Positions 10,201 through 46,260 of a DNA stretch of 64,000 nucleotides are shown piece after piece. Numbering within the stretch: position 1 is the first letter of the stretch; each line of letters opens with the position of its first letter. Source of the DNA: Marsupella aquatica (Eukaryota > Plantae > Marchantiophyta); assembly GCA_973895155.1 (NCBI GenBank), contig OZ316892.1, positions 3,537,223 through 3,601,222 on the forward strand, in the 5' to 3' direction. The position numbers were made by a program, and so were the translations under genes. The notes beneath the pieces are model-generated. The model was not told the DNA's origin and did not search any database. It worked only from the letters and a program-made list of their open reading frames with translations.

Positions 10201-10498
10201 GTAAAAGCCGAGAGCGCGGATAGGGAATGCAGGAGGAGAACGACGGGGGTCTGGGATGGAAACGAAAGGACAAACAGAAGATTGTGACAAGGAGAAAGCT
10301 GTGCATACCTAAGACAAACAGGGCGCCTTTCCAGCCCCCTGTCCGGCGTTTGGATGCTGGTCGGCCATGTACATCCACAGTTCCGTCTTGTGTCAAGTCG
10401 CTGCTGCTGGTGCTACTGCTTCTCCCATCCTCGATGCGATCTCCATCGAGTGGTCTTCTGTTCCGGACAAAGCTTAGTGACAGTGGGCGAAACCTCAT
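7300..10498 (-). CDS. NRT1/PTR family (NPF) MFS transporter, ~630 aa, exons 10498-10309, 9681-9464, 8971-8412, 8224-7300
   Basis: Three GT-AG introns in phases 1, 0, 2 give one 1893-nt frame. Family motifs: DGTVDVHGRPA...TGGWK, IADSYCGRF, FGADQFDE, FRFLDKAA, LCTVTQVEEVK, LQRIGVGL, EFFYDQAPD, NLNQGRIDLFYWLLA. Confidence 0.93.
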
Positions 10499-12419: not shown

Positions 12420-12975
12420 ATTGGCCTCCACGTGTATTAGTCCACAGCCTTTAAGAACATAGCGGTCTGGTAAGTGCACATCAAAATATGATACATAGGG
12501 GTGTATTGGCCTCCACGTGTATTAGTCCACAGCCTTTAAGAACATTGGGGTCTCGGTAACTGCACATAAAAATATGATATATAGGGGTGCATGACATCCC
12601 TCCATACCATGATAATTTTTCTTAATTTCTTTAGAGGACATCCCTCCATACCATGATAATTTTTCTTAATTTCTTTACATCAATTAGTGCCAGTGTATTA
12701 CATAAATTTCCTTATTTTCCTTAAATCAATTAGTGCCAGTGTATTACATCCCTCCTTACCATGACCAAAATATGATATATACAGGTGTATGACATCCCTC
12801 CATACCATGATGAACCTCATCATTTTCTTTAAATCAACTAGTGCCCTTGTGAGTATCACATCCCTCCATACCATGCCAAACCTTGTTATTTTCTTTAAAT
12901 CGACTAGTGCCCGTGTACGTATCACATCAATCCATACCATGCCAAACCTTGTTATTTTCTTTAAATCAATTAGTG
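12420..12975. repeat. Compound tandem repeat: two 85-bp units followed by degenerate 44-66 bp units sharing ACATCCCTCCATACCATG
   Basis: ATTGGCCTCCACGTGTATTAGTCCACAGCC at 12420 and 12505. The ACATCCCTCCATACCATG core recurs at about 12594, 12638, 12746, 12792, 12858 and 12924. Confidence 0.85.
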
Positions 12976-15900
12976 CACACCACTTATTACACATTTGATG
13001 TGTGATTACCTGTAGGGACAACATTGCCACTAAAGATTCTAATTTACAATAGAGTGTACAGTGGATAAGTGTAGCATGTATAACTGCATGGTAGTTGTGT
13101 AGTTCCTCAATAACACAGCAAATTCCTTTGTAAATGTACCAAAAATGCACCGTCTGTAAGTGCAGGCTGCCCGACATTAAACAACAAATATACAAGGCCA
13201 TTTGGTCTATAAGAGTACAGATGCATTAATCAATGATTCCAAGACATATATTAGAAACATTTATTGAAAGGTGTAGCAGACAACTATACATTGCAGTTTC
13301 ATGCACTTATCCAGTTGAATCATGCACTACGAGGGTTCTGGGTATGAGAAATCTATGTGTATGACCTGACAACACATTTGTGGAAATGCATGTTATTACA
13401 CTTGTTAAATATATACTTATCAATGGGTGACGGGCAACCTACACGTATGGAACTATAGGGGGTTTTTAATTCCAAATTTAGGACTATTCCTAGAATATTC
13501 CATAAAGTTAGGGGGTTAAAAAATACTTTGTTTTCTCAAGTTTTAGGGTGTTTATTACTTGAAAACTTTGTGCGTGATATGGGATATGGGACCTCCCTTG
13601 GAGTGAGGTCCCCGAGCCAAAATATGGTCCACAAGTAAGAGCTCTCTGTCCAACGTGGTGGTCCATCTAGGCTTCACTTTCCCCATAATCTTACTAGTAA
13701 AGTACAATCAAACCGTATTGTTTAGGGTTAAGGTCTAGAGTAAAGCCTCTACACCGTGACTCTAAGGTGTAACTAAAAACTGGGGTGGGGTGGAAAATGA
13801 CCAGGAGGCAATGGACTGAGTATGCACAATTACTAGTCAGAGATGACTAGAGATTTAATGCAAGTCTCTAAACTAGCTGGATTAGATGCAAGTAGCAGGG
13901 CAAGTAGCTAACCGGCACCCAGTTGGTATTGACATTCAAACCAAGGCATTGAGGAGTAGCTAGTGCTAGGGAGTTGGTGATGGCGATGGAAACCTGGGGA
14001 ATGCATGTGAGATGCACTTTTCTGTACTCACCTCTCTCCATGTTCAAAGAACAAGTATTCACACTAGTTGCATATCAAAATGTACCTGCCATGTCACTCC
14101 ATATCATAATAAACTCTAATATTTTGTTTAAATCATTGAGTGTTATGAAGGTTTGTGATATGCAATTTGGGGATGCCATTGAGATCACTCCCTCTTAGAG
14201 CCCTGCCAAATCGGGAGTAGCAAGCTGGTGAGGCACCTGCGTACCGGGCTGCGTACCTAGCTGGGTTTATGCGGGGGTTTACGAAGAGTGCAACCAGATG
14301 TCCCGGACCACTTGTCCCACCTTTCACACTCACTAAAAATTGTCGGTCATGAGTGTGTCAAGTGCACTCGCCAATGCATTTGTCCCATTGAATAAGAGAG
14401 GGCCAATAGCAAACATCAATTGATCTTGGCAGCCTTTGTCACACTCTGTGGTCTTGGACCCTAGGATTGTCAGTCTCCAAAAAGCATTGAAAAGGTCAGG
14501 CTGGAATATTGCGATGCACAGACCATGACAAAGTGGGGCTCAAAAATTGGGCCTGTGGGCTCATCCCAGGATACTTGCTCCTAAGTTGCCCCACCAATGG
14601 GAGTATATATTAATTTTTTGTACTTGCGGGGGTCACTATATGGAGGGCCATACATTGTGTGGGACATTGTAGGATTTGACCAACTTATGAGTAAAAAACC
14701 AGATTTGTAACACCCTTTTTTTCTTTAAATTTTGCCATTTTTTACTTTAAACCCCTAAAACCTTTAAAGAAAGAATTTTTTATAATTAAATAGGCCTATT
14801 TGTTCTTAAAAGCCGTTCAATCAATAAAAAATGTCATATTAATTCTTCCACAAACTTTGGAAGTATTATGCCTCACCCATTTAAATGGCCCTAAACTTCA
14901 TTGCATGTGATGGGCCACTTCTGTAGAAGTGACCCCCCCCAAAGTCTTTGGTCAAGGTCAACAACAGACGGACCAAAAATCTCAGTGTTCGATAAGGAAA
15001 AGTGGACAAAATCTCAATGTCCAAAAGGGAGAAGTGTCAGTCATGCCAAGTCTCCAAAGACTAAGTTCTTATCTCCCAACTCACAGGCTCTATAACAATG
15101 AGCTAAATTCCTCTAACTTGCTAGCTAACTCTTGCTGATGAACATAGTACTAGCACATCCAATTATATCCTGGAAGCACTTGAATCTTGTTCAACTAACT
15201 ACAACTACATAGTAACTCTAGACCTAGAAGTAAATGTCTAACAGTTTATTTAAAGAATGTTTTAGCGCAAATTGGACCATTTGATGATATGTTAATAAGG
15301 GCTCACAAAAGTTAGCCAAAGTGTGTTACCATCCAAAATACTGGAGAATGCTAAATGATAGTAGACAAGCAAAACCTCTGAAATGATGAAAAAGCTGGTG
15401 CAATGTGTGCAGTTAAAAGGAGAGGCTAGGATGCAACAAAGAGTCTAGCTCAAAAAGTCACAAGCACAACAAGCAACAAAACTGAGCAAACACCACTAAA
15501 TAATAGGCATTGTGGATGATGGGAGTGTTTTCCATTGAACACTGCAAAATATAGTAGCAAAGATGTCCTACCAAACCCTGAGCATAAGATATTCTAATGC
15601 CTAATTGCATTCACTTTATTAGTAATGGCATTCATAGCAATGTTGGTAGAGTGCATAAAATATAAGTTTTTTAAATAGGTCTGTGTTGAAACCCTTTGCC
15701 CACAACTGACCAAACCAGATCACACACCTGTTGTAATTGTTAAAGGCGGGGTTAAAGGAGAAAGATGACATCCATATAGCATGCTAAGTCCATCAAAGCA
15801 AAACAATATGGGCATGATCTAGAGACTGCAATATGTACCCCCTCCCTACACTCCTTCCTATTATTCCTACATGGTCCTAAATTGTCCTTTAATTCCCAGC

Positions 15901-17136: not shown

Positions 17137-18540
17137 CTAGCTCAATACCCTGTGCGTTGCACAAAAGACGTCGTGCAGAAAAAAATGTTGTGTTGCCCAA
17201 GATGTTGTTAAAACACATGTCGTGGCACCCAAGATGTCACTAAGAAAAAAAGTGTTGTGGCGCCCAAGATGTCGTTAGGAGAAAAGATGTTGTGTTTCCC
17301 AATATGTTGTTATGTGAACAATGTCCTGAAGTAAATGGATGTCATTTTGCCTAAGATGTTGTCAAGTAAATAGATGTTGTGTCACCAGTAATGTCATTAT
17401 GCCAAAGATGTCATTAAGTACAAAGATGTTGTTAGGTACAAAATGGTCAATAAGTAAAGTATGTTATTAGTCAAAGATGTTGTTAAGTACATCTTGGGCC
17501 CGATACCTGTGCATTGCACAAAAGATGTTGAGGTGAGAAAAGATGTCAAGGTGAAAAAAGATATCAATGAGAGAAAAATATGTACTGGTGAGAAAAGTAT
17601 GTCAAGGAGAGAAAAGATGGTGAGGTGAGAAAACGACGTCAAGATGAGGGAAAGATGTAGAGGAGAGAAAGAATGTCAAAGTTGAGGGAAAGTTGTCATG
17701 GTGAGATAAAGATGGCAACGTGAAACAAGATGACAAAATGACAATATATATGATGAGATGACAATATATATGTCGAGATGAGAAAAGATCTTGAGGTGAG
17801 AAAAGATCTCAAGATGAGGAAAAGTTGTCAAGATGAGGAAAAGATTTTGAAGTGAGAAAAAATGTCTTGGTGAAGTGAAGATGTCAATGTAGGAAAAAGA
17901 TGGTGAAATGAGAAAAAGATGTCAAGGCAAGGAAAAAATGTTGAGTTTGAGATCTACATGTAAAGATTAGAAAATATATCTTGTGAACGTGAGAAAAGAT
18001 GTCAAGGCATGGCAAAAAATAATAAACGTTGTGATGTTGAGGCATGTTATGTGTGATCCTGGCCATACAATAGTTGTGGTCGTGTTAACCCGTGCGTTGC
18101 ATATAGAAATTGGAGACGCGAGATAACGACCACCATATCATAGAGGCCAAGCATAATTGAGTGACAGGAAACTCTGTGTTTTTAAAAAAAATTAGAACAA
18201 ATACTTTCAATATATTTTATTTATAATCAAAATTATTTCAAAATTTTTAGAATTATTTATATATGAATAAACTGAATTAGTATTTAATTAAGTTTCTCAT
18301 TGTAACAGGTATGGGAAGGCCAAAGGGTAGCTTGGGCAGGAACTTGTTTTAGAAGGGGTGTATGGATACATTTGATGGTGTAGAGAAATTAATATTTTGA
18401 TGAACGGTCAAGATTCACTTTTTTTTAATTTGTAAAGGGACTGGATACCTATTATAGTGGTACATAGTAAAGGGAGGACGTCTCCTTGATCCTGGTGCCG
18501 CATTGCTAGAGCGTCTCTCCATTTACTTTGTATAATTAGA
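17137..18540 (-). mobile_element. Probable non-autonomous Helitron filled with degenerate AAAGATGT tandem repeats
   Basis: Minus strand begins A|TCTAATTATACAAAG (18540) and ends with hairpin TGTGC-AAC-GCACA (17163-17151) then CTAG|T (17140-17137). A|T target, no TSD. Extra hairpin-like copies at ~17505 and ~18090. Confidence 0.55.
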
Positions 18541-21500: not shown

Positions 21501-22094
21501 CCTTTGTCAGTAGAAGTTGCATGTAGAGTGACAGTAGAAACAATTTTTCTCTCACAATCAAATGAATCAATTCATCCACTATAATTGCCAAATGAATGAG
21601 AATCTTGAAGGAAGTTACACTTATGCAACAACCTCACGGGAAACTGCAGATATGAGAATCATCAGTTGTATGGTCAACAGCCGGGATTCGATCTAGTTAG
21701 TACAAATAGTGCTTTTACTCACATAATTATGCTGTTTTTCTCCTTGTTAAATCTTACTGAGAGTGTGAAAGGAAAGGTGTTCAAGGTCCAGCATTAATTA
21801 CGACCTCACTCGGACTCTCGGTACCTCAAAAGCAGCGATCAAGGGACTGTATCCTCTGTATCAGTCGAGGGCGGGTTGTAGTGCTGACAGGATTGACATC
21901 TCAAACTCCCCAAATCTCATCGTTTGCTGCTGAATAGATTCAGCAGAGAGTTGTTCTGGTTAATTGCCATCGTCAAGAGTGCAGCAACGTCGTTTGTATT
22001 CGATATGAAGGCAAAAGTTGGTCTGAGCTCTCCTCGATATGTTGCAAAAGGCGCCATTGGTGACCTTTACGGTGGATGAGCCTCAGCAAAATTA

Positions 22095-22896
22095 ATGAAG
22101 TCCGTGAAATGGCACGGCAAGGAGGACATTCGGATGAACTCCAAGAGGCTAGTGCCTATAATCACAGACCCAGCCGACATCATTGTGAAAGTCACGAGCA
22201 CTTGCAGCTGTGGCTCGGCCCTATTGTATCTCGCAATATGCCCCGAATGGTGATTAGAGATATCCTCGGGCATGAGTTTCATGGGGAAATTGAGGATCAC
22301 AGACGACGTCGGGCCGAACGTGGAAAATTTGAAAAAGCGTGAAAGGGAGAGGGAGAAGGGTAAGGAAGAACTATACGGCGCTCGAACTGCAGGATTGTTG
22401 CTACTCTCATGTCAGTGGCAGGGAGGGTATCCTTGAGGGCAGTGGGAATACTTGTGTGTCCGTCCCGCTTGCTGATTTCAACACGTTACAAATTGAAGCC
22501 AGCACCATTCCAGACCGTCATTCTCTTCGCGGACATTGTGCCTAAAGCTCGGCACACCTGTGAGCCCGGGGAAGTCCATGACGGGGATAGAGTGGCTAAG
22601 GAAGTCAGTTTGAACTAACGAAGCAGGTTTGATCGACGAGTTTGACTCTCGGTAGTCCCACGCCAAGAAGACTCTTCCCTCCATCTCAATTTCAAGCTGG
22701 AGGGGGTCTCAGAAAGTTCTTCCCCGACTCCACAACAGTGAGTATTGATGAAGTTGGCATGTCCAACGCCACGTCTCTGATCCACAAGGGTCAAACCGCA
22801 CCGAAACTACTCCTGAGATTGTGTTGGGTGGGAGAATCTCGATCCATTGTGTTGGAGGGGAGAATCTCGATCTCGGTGCGTACGCAAGCGTGGGCA
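22095..22896 (+). pseudogene. Frameshifted zinc-dependent MDR (glutathione-independent formaldehyde dehydrogenase-like / YbdR-type) pseudogene
   Basis: Fragments across frames: MKSVKWHGKEDIRM...DPADIIVKVTSTCSCGS, NMPRM...DILGHEF, VPLADFNTL, VILFADIVP...GEVHDGDRVA, SIDEVG...SLIHK, GRISI. Multiple frameshifts and deletions; no introns evident. Confidence 0.8.
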
Positions 22897-24257
22897 AGAG
22901 GACGTGTTAAAAGTATTTTATGGCGAGGATTTAAATCGCCACTAGCTACAGGGTAGTGTCAATACTTTTACCTTTGTTTTCTTCAGCTACATTACCACGC
23001 TACATTACCACTAAAGATGTACAATAGTGTCACTATTTTTGTAGTATTTATAAAATGCAACAGTAGATGGTTACCTTGGTAAATTTGTCATCCATATACA
23101 ATCCATATACAACACTGTGACATTTTTATAAATACAGGAAAACAATGATAGTATTATGAATTAAAATATTTTAGTAACAAAGTAATTAATTAATTTTTTC
23201 TTTCCTGGAATTGTTCTTCTCTCCCCTTCCATATTGCTCCACATATTCACTGAAACTATATTATTTATGGTAAAACCTGGTGGTTTGCGTCATGGCTAGT
23301 GGTGGGTTAAGGAGTTCTGGGCTATCTAAATACCCATAAGAATCTTTAAGTCTAACAAATTTCCACCCATAATAATTTGCTTAGGGGAGAATTTTGACGT
23401 GCCCTAATGGCACAGATTGGGGGCTTTAAGGGAGAAGCCTTTGACTATGCGCTGTGGACAAATGCCGGTCCAAATGTATCGGCATTTGGTATGATCTTCC
23501 AGCAAGGTATTGGGGTGACTTTACAATACTGTCCTGGTACTTGTGACTTTTTCATCTTGCATGTAAGTAATCGGCCCTTTCTTTTGCAGCCTGACTTCTC
23601 CCTAGTTTTCACCAGCTCCAGATTTAGTGGGCCGGCCTCATTTTGTTTTCATTAGAGCATCCGCACTGGTCCGCCATACAAGGTGGCCGGTAGCGTAAAT
23701 GCAGGGTTTCGCCAGGGAATCTGTTTTTGGCCTCCCCACCGAGCGACAATAGGGTTCCGCCAAATGGCAGGGACGGGATAAACAAATTCCCCCTGTTAAG
23801 TATCGACGATGATCGCAACGGCAAGCACAACTAGATTTTGTTGTGTCAGATGCAAACAATACCTCCTCATAATCGTCGTTAATATAATTAACGACTTCCA
23901 TGACTACGTTTATAACTACGTCCGACGTAACGGCGACGTCGGAGAAATCTAAGCGCCGATTGCCCCCATTTTAACGTCGCTGGAAACACATTAAAATTAA
24001 CGTCTCTGGATGAGCTGTCCTAAACGTCGTTTTGGTCGTCGTTCAATATTAACGACGTATTAGAGGACGTAATGTGTTTAGGGTATAACGACGTCAATGT
24101 TTACGTCGTGGAGGGAGACGTACGTAAAAGTGGTAACGTTGCTCTGTAGGACGTTCCGATTGAATCAAGCCATGTTAGACGTTGAGTACATCGGTGTGGA
24201 CGACTTGAATGAGGAGTAGTCCATGCTGACTCGAGTATAGCTTGGGTTTTCTACAGG

Positions 24258-24936
24258 AGGATTTTGGTTTAAGAGTGCTGAGACCAAAGTAGGCTTGCAT
24301 TTGTGATTTTTGGAGAATGCACTCTTCCTGAGTACAGAGAAATTGCAGCGTGGGATCTAGACTCAGTGTTCAGTCATGGTGCGCAAGTTCTTCAAAGATG
24401 TGCATTGTTGCTTCCTTCCACTTGGTGAAGAGGACAAGACTATACGTGGGTTCTTTTGTCGGGGAGGTGTTATTGAGAAGTTGTGTACCTCGGAAACAGA
24501 CTACTTGCTGGCCTATACGTGGAAAGAAGTTGTTGAGCACTTCAGTGACTACCATGGATTGATCGAGCACTTTGCAGAGACAGTTCATTTCATTTCTATC
24601 CGTTGGGTAGAGTGCTCAATTCTGGCCAACAAACAGTTGGATCCAGGAGACTTCCTGCTGCATCCAGGTGATGATCAGATGTTGGATGAGGCGCCCAACC
24701 CAGATGATGGGGAGGCATATCCACCTACATTGCCCAAATGTGAGCTGTCTCCGACTGAGCTTCACATTGTCTTGTATGATTACAAGGAAAGTTGTGCAGT
24801 TGAGGTTGAGGCTGAAAGGCTAAAGGCTGGGGAAGAGGTCGTCCGGAAGAAATGGAACCAGAGGCAGAGGCGTGATTCTTACAAAAGAAGGAAGGCAGAT
24901 GAGGAGTACTACTGGTCTGGTGAAGGAACTCCTTAA
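24258..24936 (+). pseudogene. CACTA-internal ORF weakly resembling the C-terminal DUF4216-like region of TnpD
   Basis: 186-aa ORF 24376-24936, extended upstream in frame through two stops to an acceptor at ~24257 (GFWFKSAE...TQCSVMVRK...GGVIEKL...FISIRW...LDPGDF). Similarity judged by eye only. Confidence 0.4.
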
Positions 24937-25399
24937 GTAGCAACAATCTGGATGTCAATGGATGAGGCAGTTTAGTGATTCGGCTAGGTTATAGTCGCTT
25001 TGTGGTGGACATGCAATGTGCTTTGTAGGACCTTTGTATCTCTATATCATACTGAAACTGAATAAAGACTCCCTCATGTTTTTCATTTTGAATGCATGTG
25101 CCAATTAATGTCACCACTGTCATTAACGTCGCGCGGATATAGTAACATTGCAATACACGACGTCTTTGGTTTAATACGTACCCTAAAACGACGTAAGTTA
25201 GTTTAACATCGTTTTAAGTGGAGAATCAACGTCGTGTGGAGTAACGTAAACGGGGTCGTGGCTAAATTAACGTCGTTGAAGGCTCAATAAAATGACGTTA
25301 ATTGGAATTAACGTCTGCCTGATACGACGTAGTTTGAAGATACATTGGTCTACCGAACGTAATAGTCATACAACGACGTTACCCACAGATGCTACAAAC

Positions 25400-26896
25400 C
25401 CACATGAAGGTGGCCATAACGAATATATACATGCACTGAATACATTTATGGTCATGGAGCGTGACTCTGGTCATGGAACTCGTGCCACTCAGCATTTGGC
25501 CTAAACCCTGAACGCCGAGAACCAATAGTGCTATTGATGTAACCCGCCAAGTTCCCCGTGCGAGGTGGGTAACCATCAATCTGAGCATACCTAGGATCCA
25601 ACTTTAGTGACATGCCATATCGACTAAAGGTTGGGCACTGTCGGGACAAGATGCGCCATCTTGCCGCCGAATACTTGGGCCCATAGAATGGAAACAACTA
25701 AGGCAAATCATCGGGTGCACAACCGGTAGGGACCACGATATCCACAAGAGCAAATACTCCAAGTCCTACATGAGTCCCCAATGTGGAGGGGAGGATGACC
25801 CATGGGCGGTCCCAAACTATAATAGGCTCCCGAAGCGGGAGGTCCATAGGGAGTCCAAACTCGGCTGGGAAGGAGTCCTTTAAGATGTCCAAGGCTCTCC
25901 CTCGCAACTGTCTCGGTGCCCGGGACACCGATGCATCAAGAAAAGGGCATCAGGGCGGAACAATCCTAGGTGGACGGGACTCAATCGATCGGGGTCTAGT
26001 GGTCATCACTACTCCCCTTTCAATAGGGTGCATCCTAAACACTCTCCTCCTCCTCCGAAATACACGGTCTATCTCCCTCAATATGGCTGGCAAATCGGAT
26101 GGATGGACGAATGGTGCGAGTGCACGATATGCAATGTCTCTCAAGCGGTCCACAGGCGAAGATCGCACTACAACAGGAATCTGTTCCACATGTTCACCAA
26201 AACAAGTTCAGAATATGACAATCAAAAAACAATTCAAGGAAGGAGATGTTATCATAATTGCAATACCCAACAAAATTGTATTACCTCTCGGGTCGGGGGG
26301 GTGTAACGACCATGGATCCCTAAATGGCTAAGGACAGTGGTCCTCTCATGTAAGACAACACCCTTGCATCGTCTGCAAGGGCAAGGCATCTTGCGAATTG
26401 GCCCAATCCCCTGAAGAGCAGCCATGGCCTCTCCAAATCCATCAGCATGATGGGGGCTCCGGCCTCTCCTACCGTCGGAACCATGTCTGCATCGACGATG
26501 CCTGGATCGGTGATGCCTAGATCGATCATACATGTCTGGTGAGTAATCTCTCTCCCGGTCCGACAGGTCGTCCCTCCCCCTATGATGATGGTCATCTCTG
26601 CATCGGGTGTAAGTACCCCCACCATGGTCCTCATAGGATGAGTCATCCCTCCTCCTCCCTCCCTCGTCATCCCTCCTCCTCTGCCGCTCGTCATTGCTCC
26701 TATAGCCCGATGAAGCTGAACTCCCCCTATGCCGATGATGGTGTCTATGTCGGTGAGAACTACCGCCATGCTCATCGTCATCGTCACACGAGTCATCCCT
26801 TCGCCTATCCGACTCATCATACGTCCCCCTATGATGATGATGGTATCTGTGCCGATGATGCCTGCCCCCATCATGGTCCGATGCATAGGTTGCCAT
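25400..26896 (-). pseudogene. CACTA-encoded spliced gene: His/Arg/Asp-rich N-terminus + transposase-associated Zn-finger + SET-like domain (premature stops)
   Basis: Exon 26896-26285, then a phase-0 GT-AG intron 26284-26181, then exon 26180 onward in one frame with stops at 25950, 25698 and 25452. Motifs CPCRRCK...TVLSHLGIHG, STLGTHVGLGVFALVDI, FPFYG, IDG...GNLAGYINST...PNAEW. Confidence 0.7.
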
Positions 26897-27311
26897 GTCC
26901 CCTGTGATCAAATTTACAAAGGCCCCCACAACATATTAAACCCCAAGCATAAACGTATCCCGCTACGTTAACCAAACTAACGTCCATCCACACGACGTTC
27001 CCCTAAAATTAACGTCGTTTTTTAGGTTGTGGGGAGGTTGCCGAATTTAGTTTACGTAATAATGTACGACGTACTTAATAAGTTAACGTCGTTAGGTATG
27101 ACGTAATTATATGTAACGTCGTCGCTAAACCCTACACTCCTGGTTAACGTTGTGATTAATGACGTTAAATTAGGGTAACGGCGGGTCTCCAAGGTTCGTG
27201 GGCTACGGCTGTTTTCCTTTAACAAAACATCGGGAAGTGACTTGAATGTGACTCACATTCAACATTCAACACTTCCCCTCTCCCCCTCTCGACCTCCTAT
27301 CTTAACAGTGA

Positions 27312-29222
27312 ATGACTATGGCTCATCCAGGCTATCTCCCTTCCAGTGGAGATTTTGATGCAGACTTGGTGGCTATGGATGATCCAGGGGAGTTAGAAAA
27401 GGTGCGTAAAGCTATGCAATCGACACATTCGCTGATACATGCTTTCAACCAGAGTTGGAAGTTCTTGGGAGGAAAAGGAAGCAAGGAGTCTCAGTTTCTG
27501 GAGTACCTGGAAAATATAGAGGCCAATGCTCCTACCCTCGATGATTATGTGGAAACTGAGAATGCAACGCTCTTGGGGGAGGATGGGGGGCCTTCGATCG
27601 ATGCTCTGAACTCCTTCCCGTCCCTACTAGATGATGGGTGGGACGATCCTGCCTTCAATGGAATGCAGCCTGATTCTCAGGCACCTAGTGGGACCCCAAT
27701 CAAGAGTGTGGTCCGGGTAGCACATGAAAGATTCCAGCCTGATCAGGATCGGGACTCTCGCAGGCGGAGGAGGCATCGTGATAGAACACACAACAGCAAT
27801 AGCAGCCTTGATGAGAGAAGACGGAAGGGGAAAGGGAAGGAGTATAGAGATGCAGATCCACACAGTAGAGGTACATACAAAAGAAGAAGAACAGAGGGAG
27901 ATGCAAGGGCAGACAGAAGAGAGAGGTACTCACCTCAGCGTGAACGTCACTCCCACAAGAAGCGACAACCTTCTCTTGCGCGACCGGTAACTACTACTGT
28001 GAGTCGAGACAAACTCCCAACCATCACCTTGGATGCGTTTGATGCTAGGCCGGATGTTCTGGATGAGAAGGCCCTCACAAATCGAGTGCAGACGTGTTGT
28101 GCCAAGCACTATCCTGGTTGGACAACTTGGAAGGATCTCGCGCAGAACCCAAAGAAGTTTCAGCTCCTCCTGAACGATGTGCAAGCTGGGTTTAAGAACG
28201 GCCATGAAATAGACTATAGGCACATCAGACAAAAGATCGTAGGCTACCTTGCAGATCGGAGGTTTAGATGGAGAAACAAGGTTCAAAAAATGAGATGCCC
28301 AAGGACAGAGCAATACCTGAAACCAGAAGGAATGAGCGACGCCGACTTCAAGTTGATCGTGGCTGAGTTGGAAGCAGCACCTGACACCCCAGTAGGCAAG
28401 CGAGTGCACATGGGGGACAAAGCTGCTGCAGCCCGCAAATCAAATGGCCGCCTGCGTGTGACCAATTTCTGGGGCCAGGGAGGATGGCGAGGCTTCCTTG
28501 CAACCTATGTAAGTCCCCCACCCTCTTCAAAGCACAACTTGTTCATGCTTCGGCCGCTGCGGTGAGAACATTGAATTAACATCGTTTTTCTCCTTAACGT
28601 CGCAAGTTCTAAATTTAACGTCTAGACCCCCTACGTTCATCCTACCTAACGTCGTCTCTCGCGACGTTACATTCAATTAACATCTTTTCTACATCGTTAA
28701 TATTGAAGTTTCACTATATACCTTGTCTTGGACGACGTTAATTATAAAACGTCGTTAGGTACATTGTAGTTAACGACGATGGTGACGATGTTCTCCAATT
28801 TCCTGTAGAAACGCAAGTTTGGAGCTAACGCCGAGCCAAGTGAGTAGGAGCGGCTCTATTCAAAACGCTATGGCCCGACGGCCCTATGGGCTAAGCTGGA
28901 CTCAGTCCCGGAGGACCACCCAGTGGTAAGTTACATAGTCAGGTTAGGTTCCTTCTATACTAGGTTTTGCATCCACTATTTGCAGGAGGTAAACTGATCC
29001 CTTATGTCATATCCAGGAGGATTGGAGTCCTCCAGAGGGGTTAGTGGCACGACCCATTGCGGAAGATGAGGAGGCAGATCATGGAGGGGAGGAGCCTGAT
29101 ACGCAGGAGGAGGCCTTAGTAGACTGTGGGCAGGAGGGCAGTTTAGGTACACAGGGCCGGTCATCTTCTAACCTCTCCCCTCCAGTGGAGACTGATAGGG
29201 GTCATACCAGCCATAGACGACG

Positions 29223-29258
<36 letters not shown>

Positions 29259-29524
29259 AGAGAGAGGGGGGGAGGGAGAGACATAGAGAGAGGAAGAGGA
29301 GCCGTGTCGAGAGGGATACCACTAGGGGACATAGTGGCACAGTTAGAGATGTAGTCCCTAGGAGTAGAGGCAAGGGAGCTGTGGAGTTGGTGTCTGGTAG
29401 CAGTAGTTCAGACGAGGATCCACTTCGGTACGAGTTGCGGCCCCGAGGCAAACAGTCGGAGGCACCGTCACGTATTTCTGTTCGCAGGTCTGGACGTGAT
29501 AGGAGCCGCTCTCAGCGGCATTAG
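27312..29524 (+). CDS. CACTA TnpA-like (Ptta/En/Spm, Transposase_24-like) gene, spliced, partly degenerate
   Basis: 417-aa ORF with TWKDL...F...I...RRFRWR...KPEGMSDADFKLIV...AARKSN...NFWGQGGW pattern. Donor GTAAGT at 28509; in-phase exon 28809-28925 (one stop); final exon ~29017-29524, R/E/S-rich. Confidence 0.55.
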
Positions 29525-30650
29525 GGTATACCATGCATGACTAGGTGGACGTCCACCTGCATTTTGTACATTTTTGGCACAAACTTTTGACGCCACCCAT
29601 TTATAGTGGCATTCCGGACTTCATATGTCTATTTTATGTGTATTCCGTGTGTATATGAACCTAAACCTAAAGCCCACCCAACTAAGGTAGCCTGGAAGGA
29701 TGTTCCATACAAGATTAATGTTTACCACAAATGGCACTCCATTCACGTCTCTCCATTCTTGGTACTATTTTCAAACGTTCTCGTTAACACCATTTTTACC
29801 AAGCCTCACACGACTAACTACTCATACGTCCTAGACAGACTCATCATTAACAAAGTCACAAACTACGTAATCTGAAATTAACGTCATTTTAAACGATGTT
29901 ATCAGCTGATTTCCCTGTTCAATCTGCGTCCAGAATAACGTCTTTATTTACGACGTTAATATGTAACATAGTATGGACTGACGTATGTAACGTAGTTTTG
30001 GACGATGTAAACTATAACCTTTGTTACTTCGTACAAAACGTGCCGTCATTCACGTCGAGTATGTCGCCTTTCTTTAGCAGCAAGGAGACGTCGGGCTTAA
30101 CGTCTTCATGTAACACGTAAAAAGTCCTGATAATGTAGTTGTGAAGCCCATGAATCATCCAACGCACAATAGTCGACACAGAGAGATACGTGGTTCACCT
30201 CCTCATGAGGCTACATCCACGGGAACACACAAGAGCTTTACTGCACTCTAGGCCGACCGGCCATACCAAGCATCCACAGCACAAGCTCTCTCTATCTCTC
30301 AACTAGCTCCGTAAGAATGAGCCTGAGTTCCATCTCTCCAAGCAAACACTGTTTGCTTATAGAGTGTGCACAGCATGACTAACCTAACCATGTCAGCGAC
30401 TAAGGTTAGCCTTAACTATGGTACAGTCGTAACTCTAGACCTAAGATTAAATCCTAACAATCTCCCCCTTGAATCTAGTCTAGGGGAGGGTAAAGACTGC
30501 TACCAATATGATTGCTCAGCGGGAAGTTCTGGAAAGAAAAACCAAACCGGTTTTTCCCTCTTTATACGAGAGTAGACCAAAACTAAGCCATAGCCTACAC
30601 AAGGAATGAGCAAGAGCATATCTCAGTATCTACACAAATGTTAAGTAACC

Positions 30651-31244
30651 CTACTTGTGAAGCAATTGCAAAACCTGCAACGCATCACGGTGTCTAGAAA
30701 AACTCTCCAAAGGAATCACTTTGGTAAATGCGTCAGTCGAGTTGAATTTACCGTCAATCTTGACTAGCTCAAACTGATTGTCAGACACAGCCTGCCTGAT
30801 AAAATGGTACCTGACGTCGATGTGCTTCACTCTGCTGTCCATCACCTGGTTCACAGCAAGGTGGAGTGCACTCTGACTATCACAATAGAGCTTCACATTC
30901 CCCTGTGACAATCCCATCTCAGTGATAAGTCTATCCAACCAAATCGCTTCCTTTGATGCTTCCTCCCCTGCAACATACTCCGCTTCTGTAGTAGACTGGG
31001 CAATACACTTCTGTAGAGTAGATCTCCAACTTATGCATCCACCTCCTAGTGTGAACACATAACCTGTTGTTGACCTCCTCCGATCCAGATCCTGTGCATA
31101 GTCAGCATCTACATAGCCCATCAATGATCTAGCATTATCAGTGCATCAAACAATAGACCATGATCCACGGTACCCTTCAAGTACCGAATAATCCACTTCA
31201 CTGTTTCCCAGTGTACCTTCCGTAGATTCGACATGTACCTACTC
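30651..31244 (-). pseudogene. Copia B pol 3' part (end of RT and RNase H)
   Basis: RYMSN...[60 protein letters not shown]. Continues the frame broken at 39554. Confidence 0.92.
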
Positions 31245-31589
31245 TGTTAGGTATTTACTCAAGGTCTAGGATTACGACATATTAACCATAGTTAGATTAA
31301 CCGTAGTCGGAGACGTGGTTAGGTTAACTAGGATGCACACTATATGCCAAGCGGTGTTTGCTTGGATAAGTGGAACTTAGGCTCATTGTTATGGGGCCAC
31401 TTGAGAGATGAGGAGAGCTTACACTGTGGAGACTTGGTATAGCCGACGGGCTTAGAGTTCAGTAAAGCTCTCTTTGTGTTCCCATGGACGTAGCCTCAAG
31501 GAGGTGAACCACGTATCTCTTGTGTCGACTACTTGCGCGTTGGATGTGTCATGTGCTTATCGTTACGAGTGTCGTCTATGCTCAACAAT

Positions 31590-31601
31590 TGGTATCAGAG
31601 C
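31590..31601 (+). promoter_or_regulatory. Primer-binding site for initiator tRNA-Met (Copia A)
   Basis: TGGTATCAGAGC two nt after the 5' LTR CA end. Confidence 0.95.
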
Positions 31602-32982
31602 ATGCCTGGGAGGTGACGTGTGTTCGTGATAGGATTTCGTGACGGTTTTTCCAGCGTTGAGTGTCGGTGGATTTCTCGGAGTTCCGTCGCATGGAACTTG
31701 GAGTTTATGGGCTCAACGGATAGATCGGGGCAAGAGCTTTCTAACGGTGTGAAGAAATAGGTGAACGGAGCTCGTGGTGCGGAGAGATCTAAGTTTTTGT
31801 CGTTCTAGATTTTGTGAAGAAAGTCAGCAACATTCGCGTTCGACGGTTTTTTGGAGGAGGGACCAGAGTTTATTTTCTCGACAGTGTGAGCTCTACGGCG
31901 AAGGAGGCATCGCATGCTGTAGCTCTGCTTGTAGATCGAGACGAGCTATTTGTTTTGGTAGCTGATTTGTTACCAAGTGAGTACCGTGTGCGACGGGACG
32001 AGCAAAAGAAGCATTCTGATTTTCTGACCGACTATGGAGTCCTCTTTTGCCTGAGAGGGGTTTCCTGTCGTGGCAATCGACTCGGAGAGAGAAGCGTCAA
32101 GTGTTTTGACTCAACGAAGAGATTGAGGCAAGACAATTGTTTTGAGTCCGGGATTGGCTCTTTGATGCGAAAAGGAAGGCTAAGCGAAATCAATTACCTT
32201 GTTGGACTTGGTGACGGCACCAAGTGCAATTCATCAACATTCATTGTTGACAAGGTACCATTTTTTCTCTTTGAAAAACTGATTCGAAATTGGCTATGGC
32301 AATTGAGAAAAATCTGTCATCTTTACCAATTTTTGTCTCCCTCGTTCTTTCCTCGTTTTGGGTGCTTCTTATATTGATCTTCACCGCCTCGGAGTCTAGT
32401 TTCCAAATCTGAAATCAGATCTTGATTTCGTCAAAACCCGAGTGAGATATGTTGCGTTTGGTGTCAAGGGGTACATTCTGCCGTGTGTATTTTCTGCGAG
32501 CGCGACCAGATTTCGATGACGAAGGGTGGTAGGGGGTTTTGGGGGTTCGAGGACACGTGTTAGCCCCTCGATTGTTCTTGAAAAATTCCCATAGGGCCTG
32601 TACAAGGGTCATAAAATATTCCAAAAAACCAGAGAGCTATTTTTTGTCCGTCCGTCAAAGATTTCGTCCGCCGAAAGGTAACTTGTTGTTCGTCTTCGGC
32701 AAGTTGCTAGCCATCGGAGTTGGCAACGCGGTGCATAAATTGAATTGCATTTCCGACGTCGGGTACTAGTTCACATTTTGGTTATTCCCCGAGGTGGTCA
32801 AAACGGGGGAGAATTCCAAGTTTTACCCACTCGACCAAAAAGTGAATAACTTTTACATCAGAGTTCGGTTTTGATTTTTGGTTTTCAGCATTGGAAAGTT
32901 AGGCTCGTGGATTACATGGCGGTGATAACTTTTGAGTTTTTTGAGAAGTTGAGAAAAACGTCATTTTTTCTTGATTTCTCAC

Positions 32983-35900
32983 ATGAGTGACTTGGAGGAG
33001 GGTTCTGTTGAGTCACCGGAGAGAACAGAGGAGGAAGCGGAAGATCTAGCAGAATTGTGGTCACTAGTATTACGGCGAGTGACAAGAAAAAGGATGGGGA
33101 CAATCAAGCTTGGAGGTCCTAAGTTTGAGGTTATGAAATACGATGACCGCACAGACACTTGTTGTGGGAGCGACAAGTGAAGGGGGTACTCCATGCAACC
33201 GGGCTTGGGAAATTGCTGAAGGACCAGCCAAATGATGTCGACAATGATGACTGGCAGGACATGCAGGAGCAGGCTGTGAGCACCATGATGCTCTATCTTC
33301 AGCCTAATGTCATCAAGCAGTTGGCAGACCATGTCGATTGTGCATCATTGTTTGTCGCGTTGGAGCAAAAGTACCATCAAAAGGAGCTATCGAATCGGCT
33401 CTACACATCTTTGAAGCTTATGAGCTTCAAGATGAAGGAGGGAAGTGCAAAGATTCAAGACCATATCGATGGTTTCAACGACCTGGTCGTTGATTTGCAA
33501 AATCTGGGGAAGGATTTGAGTGATGAGCAGCAGGCTCTTCACTTGCTTAGCTTTTTACCCTCATTGTATCAGTCATTGTCACGAGTGTTGCTTTATCGTG
33601 ACAGGAAGACTATCACTTACAATGAAGTTGTAAGTGCTCTGTTGACTGATGACTTGCAACAGAAATTGACCATGCCCTCTGAGCCATCATCATCGTCTGG
33701 TGCTGCCTTGAATGTGAATCGTGGGAGGTCACAAAAGCGTCAAGAGCAGCGCACGCAGGGCATGGGAAGAAGTAAATCTAGGACAAGATTTGCTTCAAGG
33801 GGGAAGTCCCAGGAGAGAAAGCCAGTCTTCTGCTGGAAGTGTCACAAGATTGGTCACGTTAAGAGGGATTGTAAGGGTAAGGCAGCTGAATCTTCATCAG
33901 CCAATGTGGCTAGTGCTGATGGAGAAGTTGATTTACTCAATGATGAGTATGTTTTATGAAGTCAGGAGTGTGCCCTGTGCACATCATCTAGGAGAGAAAA
34001 TGATGTATGGATTCTTGATTGTGCTTGCACCTTTCACATTTGTTACATTCATGAGTATTTCAATTCTTATTCTATGTCAAACGGTTCAGTTTTGATGGGA
34101 AATGATCACTCCTATCGAGTTGAGGGTATTGGGTCTGTAAAGATTTAAATGTTTGATGGCATTGTGCGCACAGTGTCTGGAGTCAGGTTTGTACCTGGCA
34201 TGCGTAAGAATTTGATTTCACTCGGTGTGTTGGATACAAATGGTCATCAATGGCGAGTAATTGATGGTGAACTTCAAGTCATGTCGGGAGAGATAATGAT
34301 TTTGAAGGGGAGCAGACAGAAGAATTTGTATGTGCTGCAGGGCAATACAATATGTGGAGAGGCCAATGTAACCAAGTCTCACGAGGAAATGACTCAACTG
34401 TGGCATTCACGGCTAGGCCACATGAGTGAGAAGGGATTGGCTATCTTGCGGAAGAATGGGCTCATTTCTGATTTGCAGTCTTGTAAATTGGATTTCTGTG
34501 AGCATTGCATTTTTGGAAAGCAGCATCGTTGTGCTTTCGGTGTTGGAACTCATCGTTCCAAAGCGGTTCTTGAGTACATACATAGTGACGTGTGGGGTCC
34601 ATCCCCGACTCCCTCACACTCTGGAAAATTGTACTATGTATCATTTATTGACGATTACTCAAGATTTGTATGGATTATTTCATGACGCATAAGTCTGATG
34701 TCTTGTCCATTTTTACGAAGTGGAAGGCCCAAGTGGAGAATCAGATAGGAAACACGGTTAAGTGTTTGGATACAAGGGTGAAGAGTCTGAGGTCAGACAA
34801 CGGTGGGGAGTATACTTCAATAGAATTTGAAGAGTACTATGCAGAATAGGGGATAACTCGCCATCTCACCACAGTTTATACTCCGCAACAGAATGGTGTC
34901 GCTGAGAGGCTCAATCGAACACTGTTGGAGCGGTCACGGAGTACGTTGAGCCAATCAAGTTTACCACATAAATTTTGGGCAGAAGCTGTCAATACTGCAG
35001 CTTATTTGGTAAATCTTTCTCCTTCTAGTGCAATCAATTTCAAAACGCCGTTTGAAATGCGTTATAAGCGGCAAGCAGACTATCATGGCTTGGTAGTTTT
35101 TGGAATTGATGCATATGCTCTTACACCGAAGCAGAATAGGACCAAGTTGGATCCTACGTGCAAGAAATGTATTTTTCTTGGGTATCAGAGTGGTGTGAAG
35201 GCCTACAGGCTATGGGATCCTATTGCTTGTAAGCTCGTTGTTAGTAGGGATGTTTCCTTCAATGAATCCAGATTATTGAAGGAGGGGGAGAATACTCAGA
35301 TCTCCCGTACTGACAAAGGAAAATCTCCTATCCCAGATCTCGTTGAGGGGGAGATTGATCATGAGGTACATGATCGACGAGAAGGAGGTGCTCCAAGCAT
35401 GGAGCTCGTTCCTGTGCCAGGGGAACAAGAGGAGTTTGTTGATGCTGATGAGCAGCAAGTGGATGCTGCTGAGCTTCAAATTGTACCAGTAGATGCAATT
35501 CAACCGGAGTCATCGACTAGAAGAACATCTGGTCGCACTGTACGCGCTCCTCCTAGGTATGAACAGTGGGTTGATTCATCTCAATTGCAAGAGGACGATT
35601 TTGCAGCTGATGATGAGGGTGATGCGTTGGTTTTGGAAGAAGGGGAACCTTCTTCATTTCATGAGGCAAGTGCTTCAAAGGAGAAGCAGGAGTGGACTGT
35701 AGCAATGCAAACGGAGATGCAATCACTGAAGGACAACAAAACTTGGGAGCTTGTTAAGCTGCCTAAGGGTCAGCAAGTGGTGGACAGCAAGTGGATTTAC
35801 AAGCTGAAGGATAATTCCACAGGAAATGGATCGAAGGTCTACAAGGCTAGGTTGGTAGCAAAGGGATTCACACAAGAGAAAGGTGTGGATTACAATGAGG

Positions 35901-38900
35901 TCTTCTCACCAGTTGCTAAGTACTCAACAATACGGCTATTGTGTGTGCTTGTTGTAATGTTTGGTCTACTGCTAGATCAGATGGATGTTGTCACAGCTTT
36001 CCTCTATGGCACTATCGTAAGCCGTAAGAACACAAAAGTAACAAAATATGTTTATAAACTCGAAATTCAATCCCTTTAGGAACAGAATTGGAATAGATTG
36101 AATGATATAGTAATTTTGAGAGGTTTAGAGCCTCTTACTCTATATAGCTCAAGTTTTCCTTATAGGAGAATTAAATAAACTAACAAAATACAAGCAAGGG
36201 AAATCTTCTGAGTTATGAATAAAGGTAAGTTTCAATTGAGTGAGATAATTATCAATTTGATATTGCCACTCCTTCAAAAAGGACTATGGTCTTATTGTAT
36301 ACAAACAAAATCTCTCTAAACTCATCTGAACTTTTCTTAAATCCATAACAATACTGATTGAAAGATTTATGCTCACCAAACCCAAAGTAGTTTTCTGATT
36401 ACAGGTACTAAGATATGGATCCACTATTATGCCGTCAACATGGATTGATTATTAGCGATGAGCAATTTCAATCAATCACTAGTGGATATACCAGAGTACA
36501 TGAATGATACTAGCTACTATAAAAATGGAATTTTTGCTTCTCTCAATCCAGCATTGATTCTCAAATTGGCTAGCAAATCTCATCTGAGCAAGTCTAGAAG
36601 TGAATTCGACATGAATCTCAAAAGACTGTGATTGTAATTCAGTCACAGAGGGCATCTACTCAATTCATTCACACAACACATAACATATATTTTACAAGTT
36701 CCATACAAGTCTCTCTTGTTACAATGGAAGGAGGGAACCCATCCAGAATTCTGATATCTGAATAAAATTGTGCCCCCCAGAAATGAGTAAACCATGAGGT
36801 TTTATAGGTAAAGGTTTCTAGTTGAAAAGGCATGACCTTTCAAACCTCAAATATCTAAAAGATAATCCTAGAAAAGATGGAAAAAGTAAAGTGTGGGAAA
36901 TGCAGTGGACGCTTCAGAAAGCGTCAAGGTTTGAGTGAAGGTTCGTCGGTGTTTTATGGTAAAACTAATAAACAGTAATCTTAATCTAATTTTAACTTCT
37001 AAACTAAAAGTCGGAATGAGTTGAAACTTTTCTAGGGTACTCTACTACATAAAATCTCTATGCTGCCAAAGTTTCAGACTTTTCTAAGATCTTTAAGTGC
37101 CTCAAATAAATTGGTAAAAGTGGCAGTGTTATAAAAGTGCGAAAACTGAAAACTTTTCTAAGTGTCGGGAACATAATGGACGCTTCAGAAAGCGTCCAAA
37201 ACTACAAAGGACTTTTGTCGACGCTTCAGAAAGCGTCGACTGAATTTTGAGGTTTTGGTCGCAGCGTTCGTCTTCTGGTCTTCGGGGGACGTTTCGTGGG
37301 CGTTGTAGTGTCGATATCGCCTTTGGGGTAGCGGACGCCTCAGAAAACGTCGCTCCTCATGTGGACACTTCAGAAAGCATCATGGTGTCGGGTGGATCGT
37401 AGAGCGTCAGAGTACAGCTGGTTGGATGGCGGACACTTCAGAAAGCGTCGTCACTTAGCGGTTGTATTTCAAAGCGTCGCTACCTTCACTCTTCCGAGTC
37501 CGTATAGTTACTTCTTCACCAACGGACGCTTCAGAATTTGGTGTCGCGTTTGGAGGCGTCGCGTCTGGCTGGCTAGCGTCACATATGGATGCCTCAGCTG
37601 TATTGGGCTTTCTTTCGCTTTGGACTGGGGACGCTTCCGAAAGCGTCCCTGTAGAACAAATGGACAGACTTGAATTAAGCGTCATATTGGAGAAGACGCT
37701 TTAGAAAGTGTCGTCTTTCACCCAAAAAGGTTTGAAAAATTCCGAATTCGCTCTTATTGACATATTTCAACAAAAGTCCCTTTTCTACAAGCACCTTGGA
37801 AGAGGTAATCTTCATGAGACAGCCGCTAGGTTTTGTGAAGAGAGGACAAGAGGAACTGGTTTGCAGATTGTTGAAATCCTTGTATGGGTTGAAGCAGTCA
37901 CCAAGACAGTGGAACAAGCGGTTTGACGATTGGATTCGGTCACAAGGTTTTCACAGGAGTGTGTTTGACCCTTGTGTATATTTGAAACCGGTAAAAAATA
38001 TTGTCTTTGGGTTCATTGTTTTAGTACTTTATGTGGATGACATACTTATTGCGGCCAAGGATAGGTCTGAGATTGTTAAGCTCAAGGCACTGCTAAGTGC
38101 AGAGTTTAAGATGAAGGACTTAGGGCCAGCTAAGAGGATTTTGGGTATGGAGATCACTAGGGACTTGGAGGCTGGTAAGCTATGGTTGACACAGAGCAGT
38201 TATGCAAGGAAGGTAATTGTCAGGTTCAACATGGGGGATAGTAAGCCAGTAAGTACCCCTTTGGCTGCACACTTCAAATTATCATCAACTTTTTGTCCCA
38301 CAGATGCAACAGAGAAGGGGCTGATGTCAAAGGTTCCTTATGATAAGGCAGTGGGAAGTCTCATGTATTTGATGACTTGCACTAGACCTGATCTTGCCAT
38401 GGCTATGGGCAAGGTAAGCAGGTACATGTCAAATCCAGGGAAGGTACATTGGGAAGCAGTGAAGTGGATTATCAGGTACTTGAAGGGTACCGTGAATCAT
38501 GGTCTTTTATTTTGATGCAAATGCAAATAATGCAAGATCATTGATTGGCTATGTAGATTCTGACTATGGACAAGATCTGGACCGAAGGAGATCAACAATA
38601 GGGTACGTGTTCACACTTGGCGGTGGATGCATAAGTTGGAGGTCTACTTTGCAGAAGTGTATTGCTCAGTCTACTATAGAAGCAGAGTATGTTGCAGCAG
38701 CGGAAGCAACGAAGGAAGCAATTTGGTTGGATAGACTTATCACTAAAATAGGATTGCCACAGGGGAATGTGAAGCTCCATTGTGATAGTCAGAGTGCGCT
38801 CCACCTTGCTGTGAACCAGGTGATGGACAGTAGAGTGAAGCACATAGACGTCAGGTACCATTTTATCAGGCAGGTTGTGTTTGATAATTTGTTTGAGCTA

Positions 38901-39014
38901 GTCAAGATAGACGGTAAACTCAACCCAGCTCACGCATTTACCAAAGTGATTCATTTGGAAAGTTTCTCTAGACATCGTGATGTGTTGCAGGTTTTGCAAT
39001 TGCGTCACAAGTAA
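32983..39014 (+). pseudogene. Copia A gag-pol polyprotein (frameshifts, stops, solo-LTR insertion)
   Basis: gag with CWKCHKIGHVKRDC knuckle; protease WILDCACTFHI; GAG-pre-integrase WHSRLGH...CEHC; integrase HSDVWG/RSDNGGE/NGVAER; RT LYVDDILI; RNase H GYVDSD. Confidence 0.93.
36013..37789. mobile_element. 1.78-kb solo LTR (family X) inserted in the Copia A RT
   Basis: Interrupts AFLYGT|LEEVIFMRQP. TSD GGCAC/AGCAC (36008-36012, 37790-37794). Ends TA(TG-derived)...CTACA. About ten copies of the palindrome GACGCTT-CAGA-AAGCGTC. Confidence 0.8.
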
Positions 39015-39554
39015 GGGTTTTTCTTAACATTCGTTGTAATTACTGATATATGCTCTTCTTCACTCCTAGTAATAGGCTACGGCTTAGTTCTGGTTTGCTC
39101 TAGTTAGAGAGGGGAAACCATGTTGGTTTCCATCCAGAACTTCCCGCTGAGGAATCATATAGGTTAGCAGTATTATCCTCCCCTAGACCAGAGTCAAGGG
39201 GGAGATTGTTAGGTATTTACTCAAGGTCTAGGGTTACGACATATAACCATAGTTAGACTAACCATAGTCGGAGACGTGGTTAGGTTAACTAGGATGCATA
39301 CTATATGCCAAGCGGTGTTTGCTTGGATAAGTGGAACTTAGGCTCATTGTTATGGGGCCACTTGAGAGATGAGGAGAGCTTACACTGTGGAGACTTGGTA
39401 TAGCCGACGGACTTAGAGTTCAGTAAAGCTCTCTTGTGTGTTCCCGTGGACGTAGCCTCAAGGAAGTGAACCACGTATCTCTTGTGTCAACTACTTGCGC
39501 GTTGGATGTGTCATGTGCTTATCGTTACGAGTGTCGTCTATGCTCAACATACTC

Positions 39555-46183: not shown

Positions 46184-46260
46184 TTCTCCTTTGCTTACCT
46201 ACAGATTCGTCCTCGATATCCGTTATGCTTGGTACACGTTGGGGACAAGTCGTCACCGGT

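Follow-up and report, generated by a model that had tools for sequence, protein, structure and literature searches.

The window analyzed here, a stretch of 64,000 nucleotides from the liverwort Marsupella aquatica, harbors a transposable element with a gene that is predicted to join a transposase-associated zinc finger to a SET domain. The reading that we favor, with some reserve, is that this element represents a defective copy, with an internal deletion, of a plant CACTA family whose full form has a SET exon between the finger exon and the body of the transposase TnpD, and that an intact element would splice its finger to SET and thus produce its own protein-lysine methyltransferase, acting on chromatin at its own copies. 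One part of this reading is much firmer, i.e., the SET exon is very probably native to the element and selected.

The element and its insertion site

The CACTA/EnSpm-type element measures 6,318 bp (23826-30143), has CACAA…TTGTG ends and is flanked by an AAG duplication (Table 1). It starts with CACAACTA at 23826 and ends with TAGTTGTG, finishing at 30143; the terminal bases of the two ends agree at 8 of 8 positions and the first 13 positions at 11. Several characters of CACTA transposons are present: short terminal inverted repeats of the form CAC(T/A)A, here in the variant CACAA, a 3-bp target-site duplication (AAG on both flanks) and a subterminal repeated motif, TAACGTC, at both ends. The inverted repeats by themselves are weak evidence for the boundaries because 11 candidate pairs matching at 12-14 out of 20 positions were obtained in the same search. 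The ends are fixed by an empty site: when joined, the flanks of the element form part of a long terminal repeat (LTR) from a copia-like retroelement, of which a paralogue without the insertion (62634-62720) has one AAG at the corresponding position. The duplication-bounded CACAA element proposed in the earlier note is, therefore, borne out by its ends, its AAG flanks and this empty site. In contigs from four public runs, all 30 bins of the element are covered in three runs and 25 of 30 in the fourth, by many divergent pieces. Since these divergent contigs cover it along its length, the element belongs to a multi-copy family, although depth is not equated with copy number here.

Table 1. Coordinates of the features of the element, its insertion site and its predicted genes in the window.
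Feature	Position	Strand	Basis
Whole CACTA/EnSpm-type element, internally deleted, without TnpD catalytic core	23826..30143	.	Inverted repeats, 3-bp duplication, empty site, multi-copy cover
Left target-site duplication AAG	23823..23825	+	Flank comparison
Right target-site duplication AAG	30144..30146	+	Flank comparison
Left terminal inverted repeat, CACAA start	23826..23838	+	11/13 match to right end
Right terminal inverted repeat	30131..30143	-	Comparison with left end
Copia-like retroelement LTR hosting the element	23794..30459 (23794-23825 + 30144-30459)	-	92% to 62663-62962; flank comparison
TAACGTC tract 1, left subterminal, 2 copies	23972..24004	.	
TAACGTC tract 2, internal, 5 copies	25124..25381	.	
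TAACGTC tract 3, between two divergent genes, 5 copies	26978..27167	.	
TAACGTC tract 4, predicted intron of plus-strand gene, 5 copies	28595..28740	.	
TAACGTC tract 5, right subterminal, 4 copies	29879..30104	.	
Open frame, 186 codons	24376..24936	+	ORF; cover in other copies, also under a third organism label
Plus-strand gene, long first exon; further likely exons to ~29524	27312..28508	+	ORF
Exon 1: His/Arg/Asp-rich low-complexity region, then CxCxxC...H transposase-associated zinc-finger motif (~26383-26285)	26285..26896	-	PF13963 E 7e-4, below cut-off; L001 exon-end match
Predicted phase-0 GT..AG intron, 104 nt	26181..26284	-	Sequence; L001 donor position and phase identical
Exon 2: linker and SET domain (core from ~25860), truncated before final ELxxY motif	25457..26180	-	Family HMM 293 bits; 12 homologues; fold of relative P0007
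Premature TGA, restricted or nearly restricted to this copy	25950..25952	-	Depth in four runs
Premature TAG, restricted or nearly restricted to this copy	25698..25700	-	Depth in four runs
Internal deletion junction, 2-base overlap; removes SET end, likely TnpD body too	25457..25458	.	Loose contig ends
Last two codons and stop of downstream acidic-tailed frame, joined in frame by the deletion	25452..25458	-	Hand translation of loose ends

The motif TAACGTC occurs 22 times in the window, and 21 of these sites lie inside the element, against an expectation of 4.4. They are grouped into five tracts of non-coding sequence, a subterminal one at either end of the element and three internal, with an observed/expected ratio of CpG of 2.0-2.4, compared to 0.4-0.7 in the open reading frames. 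On the plus strand, neither a credible Pfam match nor a homologue was found for the long frame at 27312..28508, the product of which may be TnpA-like, judging by its position and a motif, and a credible Pfam match was likewise not found for the frame at 24376..24936.

The surroundings are rich in other transposable elements. Several nested copia-like copies, in both orientations and 88-93% alike, lie at 30144-43400. A gypsy-type element (43733-57423) has long LTRs that are 98-99% alike and 11.5 kb apart, with several long open reading frames between pol and LTR (46261-49459), of which one was scanned and gave no Pfam match; a frame repeated with these LTRs (45451-46131 and 56953-57423, minus strand) has no Pfam match at E 1, and its Cys pattern is reminiscent of the C-terminal OB fold of RPA70. 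A broken PIF/Harbinger-type transposase is present at 61444-62270 (minus strand; PF04827, E 5e-46), and near-palindromic GACGCTTCAGAAAGCGTC arrays at 36889-37700 and 60241-60700, 22.6 kb apart, possibly represent another DNA transposon split by nested retroelements. Degenerate tandem arrays with 66-bp, 32-35-bp and 18-19-bp units occur at 12589-12984 and 17179-18007, as do decayed frames at 22000-22650 with a GHEFHG motif that is reminiscent of zinc alcohol dehydrogenases. The host genes are a four-EF-hand calmodulin-like gene (5566-6315, plus strand) and an intron-containing PTR2/NRT1 transporter gene (7300-10534, minus strand).

A finger exon with a predicted splice to a SET exon

The minus-strand gene of the element begins with an exon of 204 codons with the C-terminal end CPCRRC...HLGIHG. 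A predicted phase-0 intron with GT..AG borders (26284-26181) connects this HRD-rich exon to a frame that starts at 26180 and shows, in this order, the motifs GLGVFA, FPFYG, IDG, GNLAGYINS and PNAEW, as previously noted and as confirmed by the sequence. Other copies align on either side of this intron yet skip the intron stretch itself. An exon with the PF13963 finger is the usual start of TnpD. The assignment of the CPCxxC motif to this CACTA transposase-associated domain holds in part: exon 1 does match PF13963 with an E value of 7e-4, but its score of 20.2 bits is under the cut-off of 27.7. The end of exon 1 is also identical at 19 of 33 positions (pairwise E 4e-10) to an exon end in L001, a metagenomic locus discussed below. 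The region that precedes the finger is of low complexity in both, and its composition differs (His/Arg/Asp in the window, Ser at 322-600 of L001).

The copy in the window cannot be active, since it carries two stops and lacks the final Tyr of the SET domain. At the site of the premature TGA (25952-25950) another letter accounts for 280.5/280.5, 4938/5279, 1564/1564 and 67/72 of the summed depth in the four runs, and at that of the premature TAG (25700-25698) other letters account for 523/523, 7933/8146, 1652/1652 and 69/69. Both stops, which had been noticed before, are, therefore, private lesions, because they are absent from all or nearly all of the summed depth. A third lesion lies at the end of exon 2, where loose contig ends occur at 25457 in all four runs and at 25458 in three of the four (among the rows listed; there are 62 further rows). 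By hand translation, other copies continue past 25457 in frame with R-L-P-V-T-C-T-H-F-I, in the same register as R-M-D-V-R-C-T-H-Y-I of the homologue P0002, and the contigs entering at 25458 do so out of an acidic frame, which stops after two more codons and is likely to be the end of TnpD. Since copies depart at 25457 and others enter at 25458, the copy in the window must have undergone an internal deletion. It took away the ELxxY motif with the final Tyr (motif IV), which explains why an ELxxDY motif had not been visible in this copy; the family as a whole retains it. A displaced C-terminal SET exon was sought within the element and not found, and 'SLYDYY' near 25370 was considered as the missing motif and rejected, as other copies continue differently from 25457. 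No TnpD core was detected in the window, where a tblastn search with four TnpD-bearing gene models of Riccia sorocarpa matched the SET part alone. The copy is thus a non-autonomous deletion derivative with the weak PF13963 exon as its sole TnpD remnant.

The SET family

For the truncated exon 2 frame of the window neither a Pfam match nor a sequence match in the PDB was obtained. When its translation was read through the stops as X, 12 homologous proteins were found among 716 candidates, with 45-61% identity and E values of 1e-77 to 2e-34. All 12 match PF00856 (E 2e-5 to 5e-3), only three of them above the cut-off. The C-terminal motif T(I)R-x-G(D/E)E-x-x-V-x-Y is complete in 11, and the twelfth differs at Arg only. 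A profile of these 12 proteins retrieved 126 representatives (50% clustering); in the 100 of 123 new representatives that were scanned at E 0.01, PF00856 was found in 49, PF02992 (TnpD) in 3 and PF13963 in none, fingers being called there by a pattern of our own.

Searches of solved structures with a single sequence and with the 12-sequence profile gave no match; a 91-sequence profile matches LegAS4 with an E value of 1.7e-8. The homologue P0007 was modeled with a 91-sequence alignment at a pLDDT of 95 and a pTM of 0.89. In a Foldseek search with this model all matches listed are SET proteins, with LegAS4 first (E 3e-7) and SET8 also among them. VIA-align against 48,161 chains gave the highest Z score, 12.6, for SET8 (rmsd 2.4, 125 aligned) and Set1, followed by PRC2 (12.1), SET7/9 (11.9) and PRDM3 and PRDM5 (both 11.4). 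P0007, a relative rather than the frame of the window itself, is thus confidently modeled with a SET fold, at 14-27% identity to solved SET domains. The SET hallmarks recognized in the earlier note, therefore, stand for the family, through this fold and the PF00856 matches of the homologues, but the frame of the window itself does not reach Pfam. The same modeled fold is shared with other minimal SET proteins (LegAS4/RomA, SET8, PRDM-type), from which the family differs by an identity of only ~22-25%, the lack of ankyrin repeats and the presence of extra loops, and their substrates cannot be transferred to it.

Differences between the copies of the element suggest selection on the SET core. 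They comprise 13 synonymous and 6 replacement differences and 2 at a stop in the core, where 24% synonymous would be expected (p 5e-5), and 5 synonymous, 12 replacement and 1 at a stop in the linker (p 0.46). This count used the best 40 by support of ~200 differences, from which one intronic row was dropped to leave 39; its rows are non-independent and transition bias is ignored, and it is to be taken as a pointer, not as dN/dS. With this proviso, and with regard to the comparison of dN/dS proposed earlier, the differences in the SET core lean synonymous.

Linkage to the transposase in other species

PF02992 is joined to a SET domain of the family in four gene models of R. sorocarpa (P0030, P0080, P0104 and P0124). 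P0080 has a finger, half of a SET domain and TnpD in this order, and in a further protein, P0043, a finger and the whole of SET share a single frame. These Riccia fusions are automatic gene models, mostly of damaged copies, and show the order of the parts, not transcripts. In total, finger or TnpD sequence was recognized with our own patterns and Pfam in 14 of 136 family proteins; the remaining 122 are, where the source is given, mostly from short contigs and could include host genes.

Further evidence comes from L001, the sole confirmed locus among 60 metagenome stretches. It consists of a Ser-rich exon ending in a finger, a phase-0 intron with the same donor position and phase as the intron of the window, a SET domain with a terminal stop and, after it, another phase-0 acceptor that opens an acidic frame. 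Its SET shares 50% identity with a close homologue and has one stop of its own in the linker. The last frame scores 3.4 bits against a profile of the TnpD start, for which shuffled sequences reach up to 8.5, and its likeness to the TnpD start is by eye only. Exact TAACGTC is absent from L001, in which three TACGTCC sites lie upstream.

A quick tree was built from 103 of the 138 rows, without the 35 shorter ones. In this tree, the window and L001 fall in one clade (support 98) and the linked members from Riccia in a second (support 97), as two subclades and P0043. The linked members thus occupy four branches, of which three are supported clades and the fourth is P0043 by itself, and these are spread over two well-supported clades; the pairing of finger or TnpD with SET must, therefore, be old. 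The TnpD linkage in the four Riccia models and the recurrence of the layout in L001 indicate that SET is old cargo of the element and not a recent capture. This agrees with the original suggestion that the module is element-borne; its multi-copy state and its linkage to TnpD or the finger in other species show that it is not confined to a single copy.

Among 30 family proteins checked for their source, 9 are labeled with an organism, namely Riccia for five, Calypogeia for three and Ginkgo for one; of the SET relatives with a name, the liverwort Calypogeia fissa has the closest. The Ginkgo biloba gene model (P0119) belongs to the wider SET family and hints at a range beyond bryophytes or at a domesticated copy. 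An Atlas search with P0005 had as its first match a SET cluster of 50 members, with Streptophyta as its commonest phylum, which may be the family's own cluster. Pattern scans of viral contigs (8 matches) and prokaryote genomes (25 matches) left no confirmed case in either; such patterns are blind to distant relatives. No sign of a near-identical host gene was seen among the relatives found.

Possible function of the SET product

In the mechanism that we propose, the finger exon would be spliced alternatively, either to SET or to the TnpD body; this is the simplest reading because SET sits between the two and has its own stop. The finger-SET product, predicted from sequence and model to be a nuclear lysine methyltransferase, would have a histone as its substrate and would be recruited to the TAACGTC tracts by a putative DNA binder encoded by the element, with the net effect that the copies are kept expressible. 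In its full extent, i.e., an old land-plant CACTA lineage that makes a histone methyltransferase by finger-to-SET splicing and marks its own motif-studded copies in cis to escape silencing, this proposal is tentative, and we rather doubt that every part of it holds. The direction of the effect on the copies is its weakest step.

The strongest competitor, itself unlikely, is a SET domain that is real and selected but methylates a non-histone substrate, such as TnpD, the accessory protein encoded on the plus strand or a silencing factor of the host, and so tunes transposition. The SET of the family is minimal, lacking post-SET cysteines and a reader domain, and would share an exon with the transposase under the splicing model. 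SET7/9, which is known for non-histone targets, is among the best structural matches. Against this, most of the top structural matches are histone enzymes, even though this reflects what has been solved.

We consider it slightly less probable again that the SET domain is weak or dead and serves as a binder or decoy of histone tails, or as the part that steers insertion within one long finger-SET-TnpD transposase. In alignment A3, 87 of 91 rows have Ser where the NHS motif has its His, so that the NS for NH seen in the window is a trait of the whole family. Four gene models (P0055, P0076, P0112 and P0113) leave SET at a donor site immediately ahead of the final Tyr and continue in a TnpD exon, and P0104 is modeled as a single SET-TnpD chain. 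However, the donor sites vary among these SET-TnpD gene models, as would be expected of annotation guesses, and in the 12 close homologues and L001 a stop follows soon after the Tyr. The remainder of the active site is well conserved in the alignment, with the GxG glycines of motif I in 65/72 and 72/74 rows (GLG in the window), the Asn of motif III in 81/91, and the Glu and the final Tyr of motif IV in 76/79 and 73/77, respectively. Two places before this Tyr, Val, Ala, Ile, Cys and Thr are the commonest residues. A small residue at this position permits di- or trimethylation under the Tyr/Phe-switch rule, from which we infer that the product may be a di- or trimethylase. Furthermore, LegAS4, which like the family lacks post-SET cysteines, has Phe in place of the NHS His and yet is described as trimethylating H3K14 (PMC10653858, in the part of the article available); by analogy, loss of this His need not abolish activity.

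An active enzyme could also write a silencing mark on histones, by which the element would keep its own copies in check or repress defense genes of the host in the manner of vSET, a viral SET protein that silences host genes, but this we regard as improbable. The fold of P0007 matches enzymes of H3K4, H4K20, H3K27 and H3K36 about equally; because the structural matches are near-tied, it gives no indication of the substrate, and whether the mark is activating or silencing is not readable from it. EZH2 and SUVH structures do match at Z 11-12, and transposable elements of bryophytes carry H3K27me3 according to the accessible part of a preprint (10.1101/2022.10.24.513474). The CpG richness of the TAACGTC tracts, on the other hand, fits unmethylated or binding-selected sites, although it is not independent of the motif itself.

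A recent Pack-type capture of a host SET gene fragment that is carried neutrally is very improbable on the evidence of the copies and relatives compared: CACTA elements do capture host fragments (PMC13317346, available part), the copy in the window is decayed and the wider family includes a Ginkgo gene model, but the finger-intron-SET layout recurs in L001 with a SET this divergent from its close homologue, TnpD is linked in Riccia, the SET core has a synonymous excess and a low identity to solved SETs, and the family is multi-copy with linkage across species.

Known systems and implications

The idea of a transposon that bears a SET domain is less new than assumed in the earlier note, because such cargo has already been described in HarbingerS, MuDR, Helentron and red-algal Plavaka elements. 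The accessory gene PAG2 of Plavaka, a transposon of the wider EnSpm/CMC group that also stably carries SET, combines SET (PF00856) with an N6-adenine methylase, and the source, as far as available, proposes chromatin modulation (10.1101/2025.02.11.637652); a role is thus proposed only, there as well as here. PAG2 is a separate gene, whereas the SET of our family is joined to the TnpD finger exon, ahead of PF02992, without a methylase partner and in land plants. No match to PF01555 (N6-adenine methylase) was obtained in 14 proteins or in 100 representatives of the family. SET methyltransferase genes are also reported, in the text accessible to us, for the DNA transposon families HarbingerS and MuDR of Phytophthora (PMC12730594) and for proto-Helentron-Pi (PMC4067079). 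These belong to other superfamilies and to oomycetes, and the Helentron SET is Clr4-like and free-standing. For land plants, a literature search by title and start of abstract, with Repbase and most subscription journals outside its scope, found no CACTA element with SET, and the whole word 'SET' does not occur in the available part of a 2026 review of gene capture in plants (PMC13317346).

A further parallel is plant En/Spm, which shares the CAC-starting termini, the 3-bp duplication, TnpD (here in the relatives) and a clustered family-specific motif; the element of the window differs by its CACAA termini and by motif tracts that are also internal. According to the available part of one source (10.64898/2026.08.24.746577), Spm makes a transposase and a regulator via alternative splicing, and its TnpA binds clustered motifs. 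Alternative products and element-encoded epigenetic regulation may, by analogy, likewise exist in our family. As far as these sources describe it, TnpA is without enzyme activity and needs host DNA demethylases, whereas the accessory product of our family is modeled with an enzyme fold. In VANDAL elements, as described in the accessible text, VANC motifs cluster in non-coding regions (PMC5735166), i.e., in introns and intergenic and terminal regions, as TAACGTC does here; VANDAL belongs to the Mutator superfamily, however, and VANC is not a SET protein.

The known plant anti-silencing proteins VANC and TnpA, as far as the sources at hand go, bind DNA, and TnpA relies on demethylases of the host. 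To our knowledge, neither has an enzyme activity. If our reading is true, the CACTA family would encode a SET enzyme with which a transposon methylates proteins directly and which, unlike VANC and TnpA, would be a chromatin writer acting in cis. The SET cargo of oomycetes and red algae has been described without a reported test of function in the parts of the sources available. The SET family found here is a small one with many intact relatives, and it occurs in liverworts, for which genetics and chromatin maps are available; this makes the role of a transposon-borne SET directly testable. It also means that some liverwort gene models labeled 'SET domain-containing protein' are parts of transposons and not host genes.
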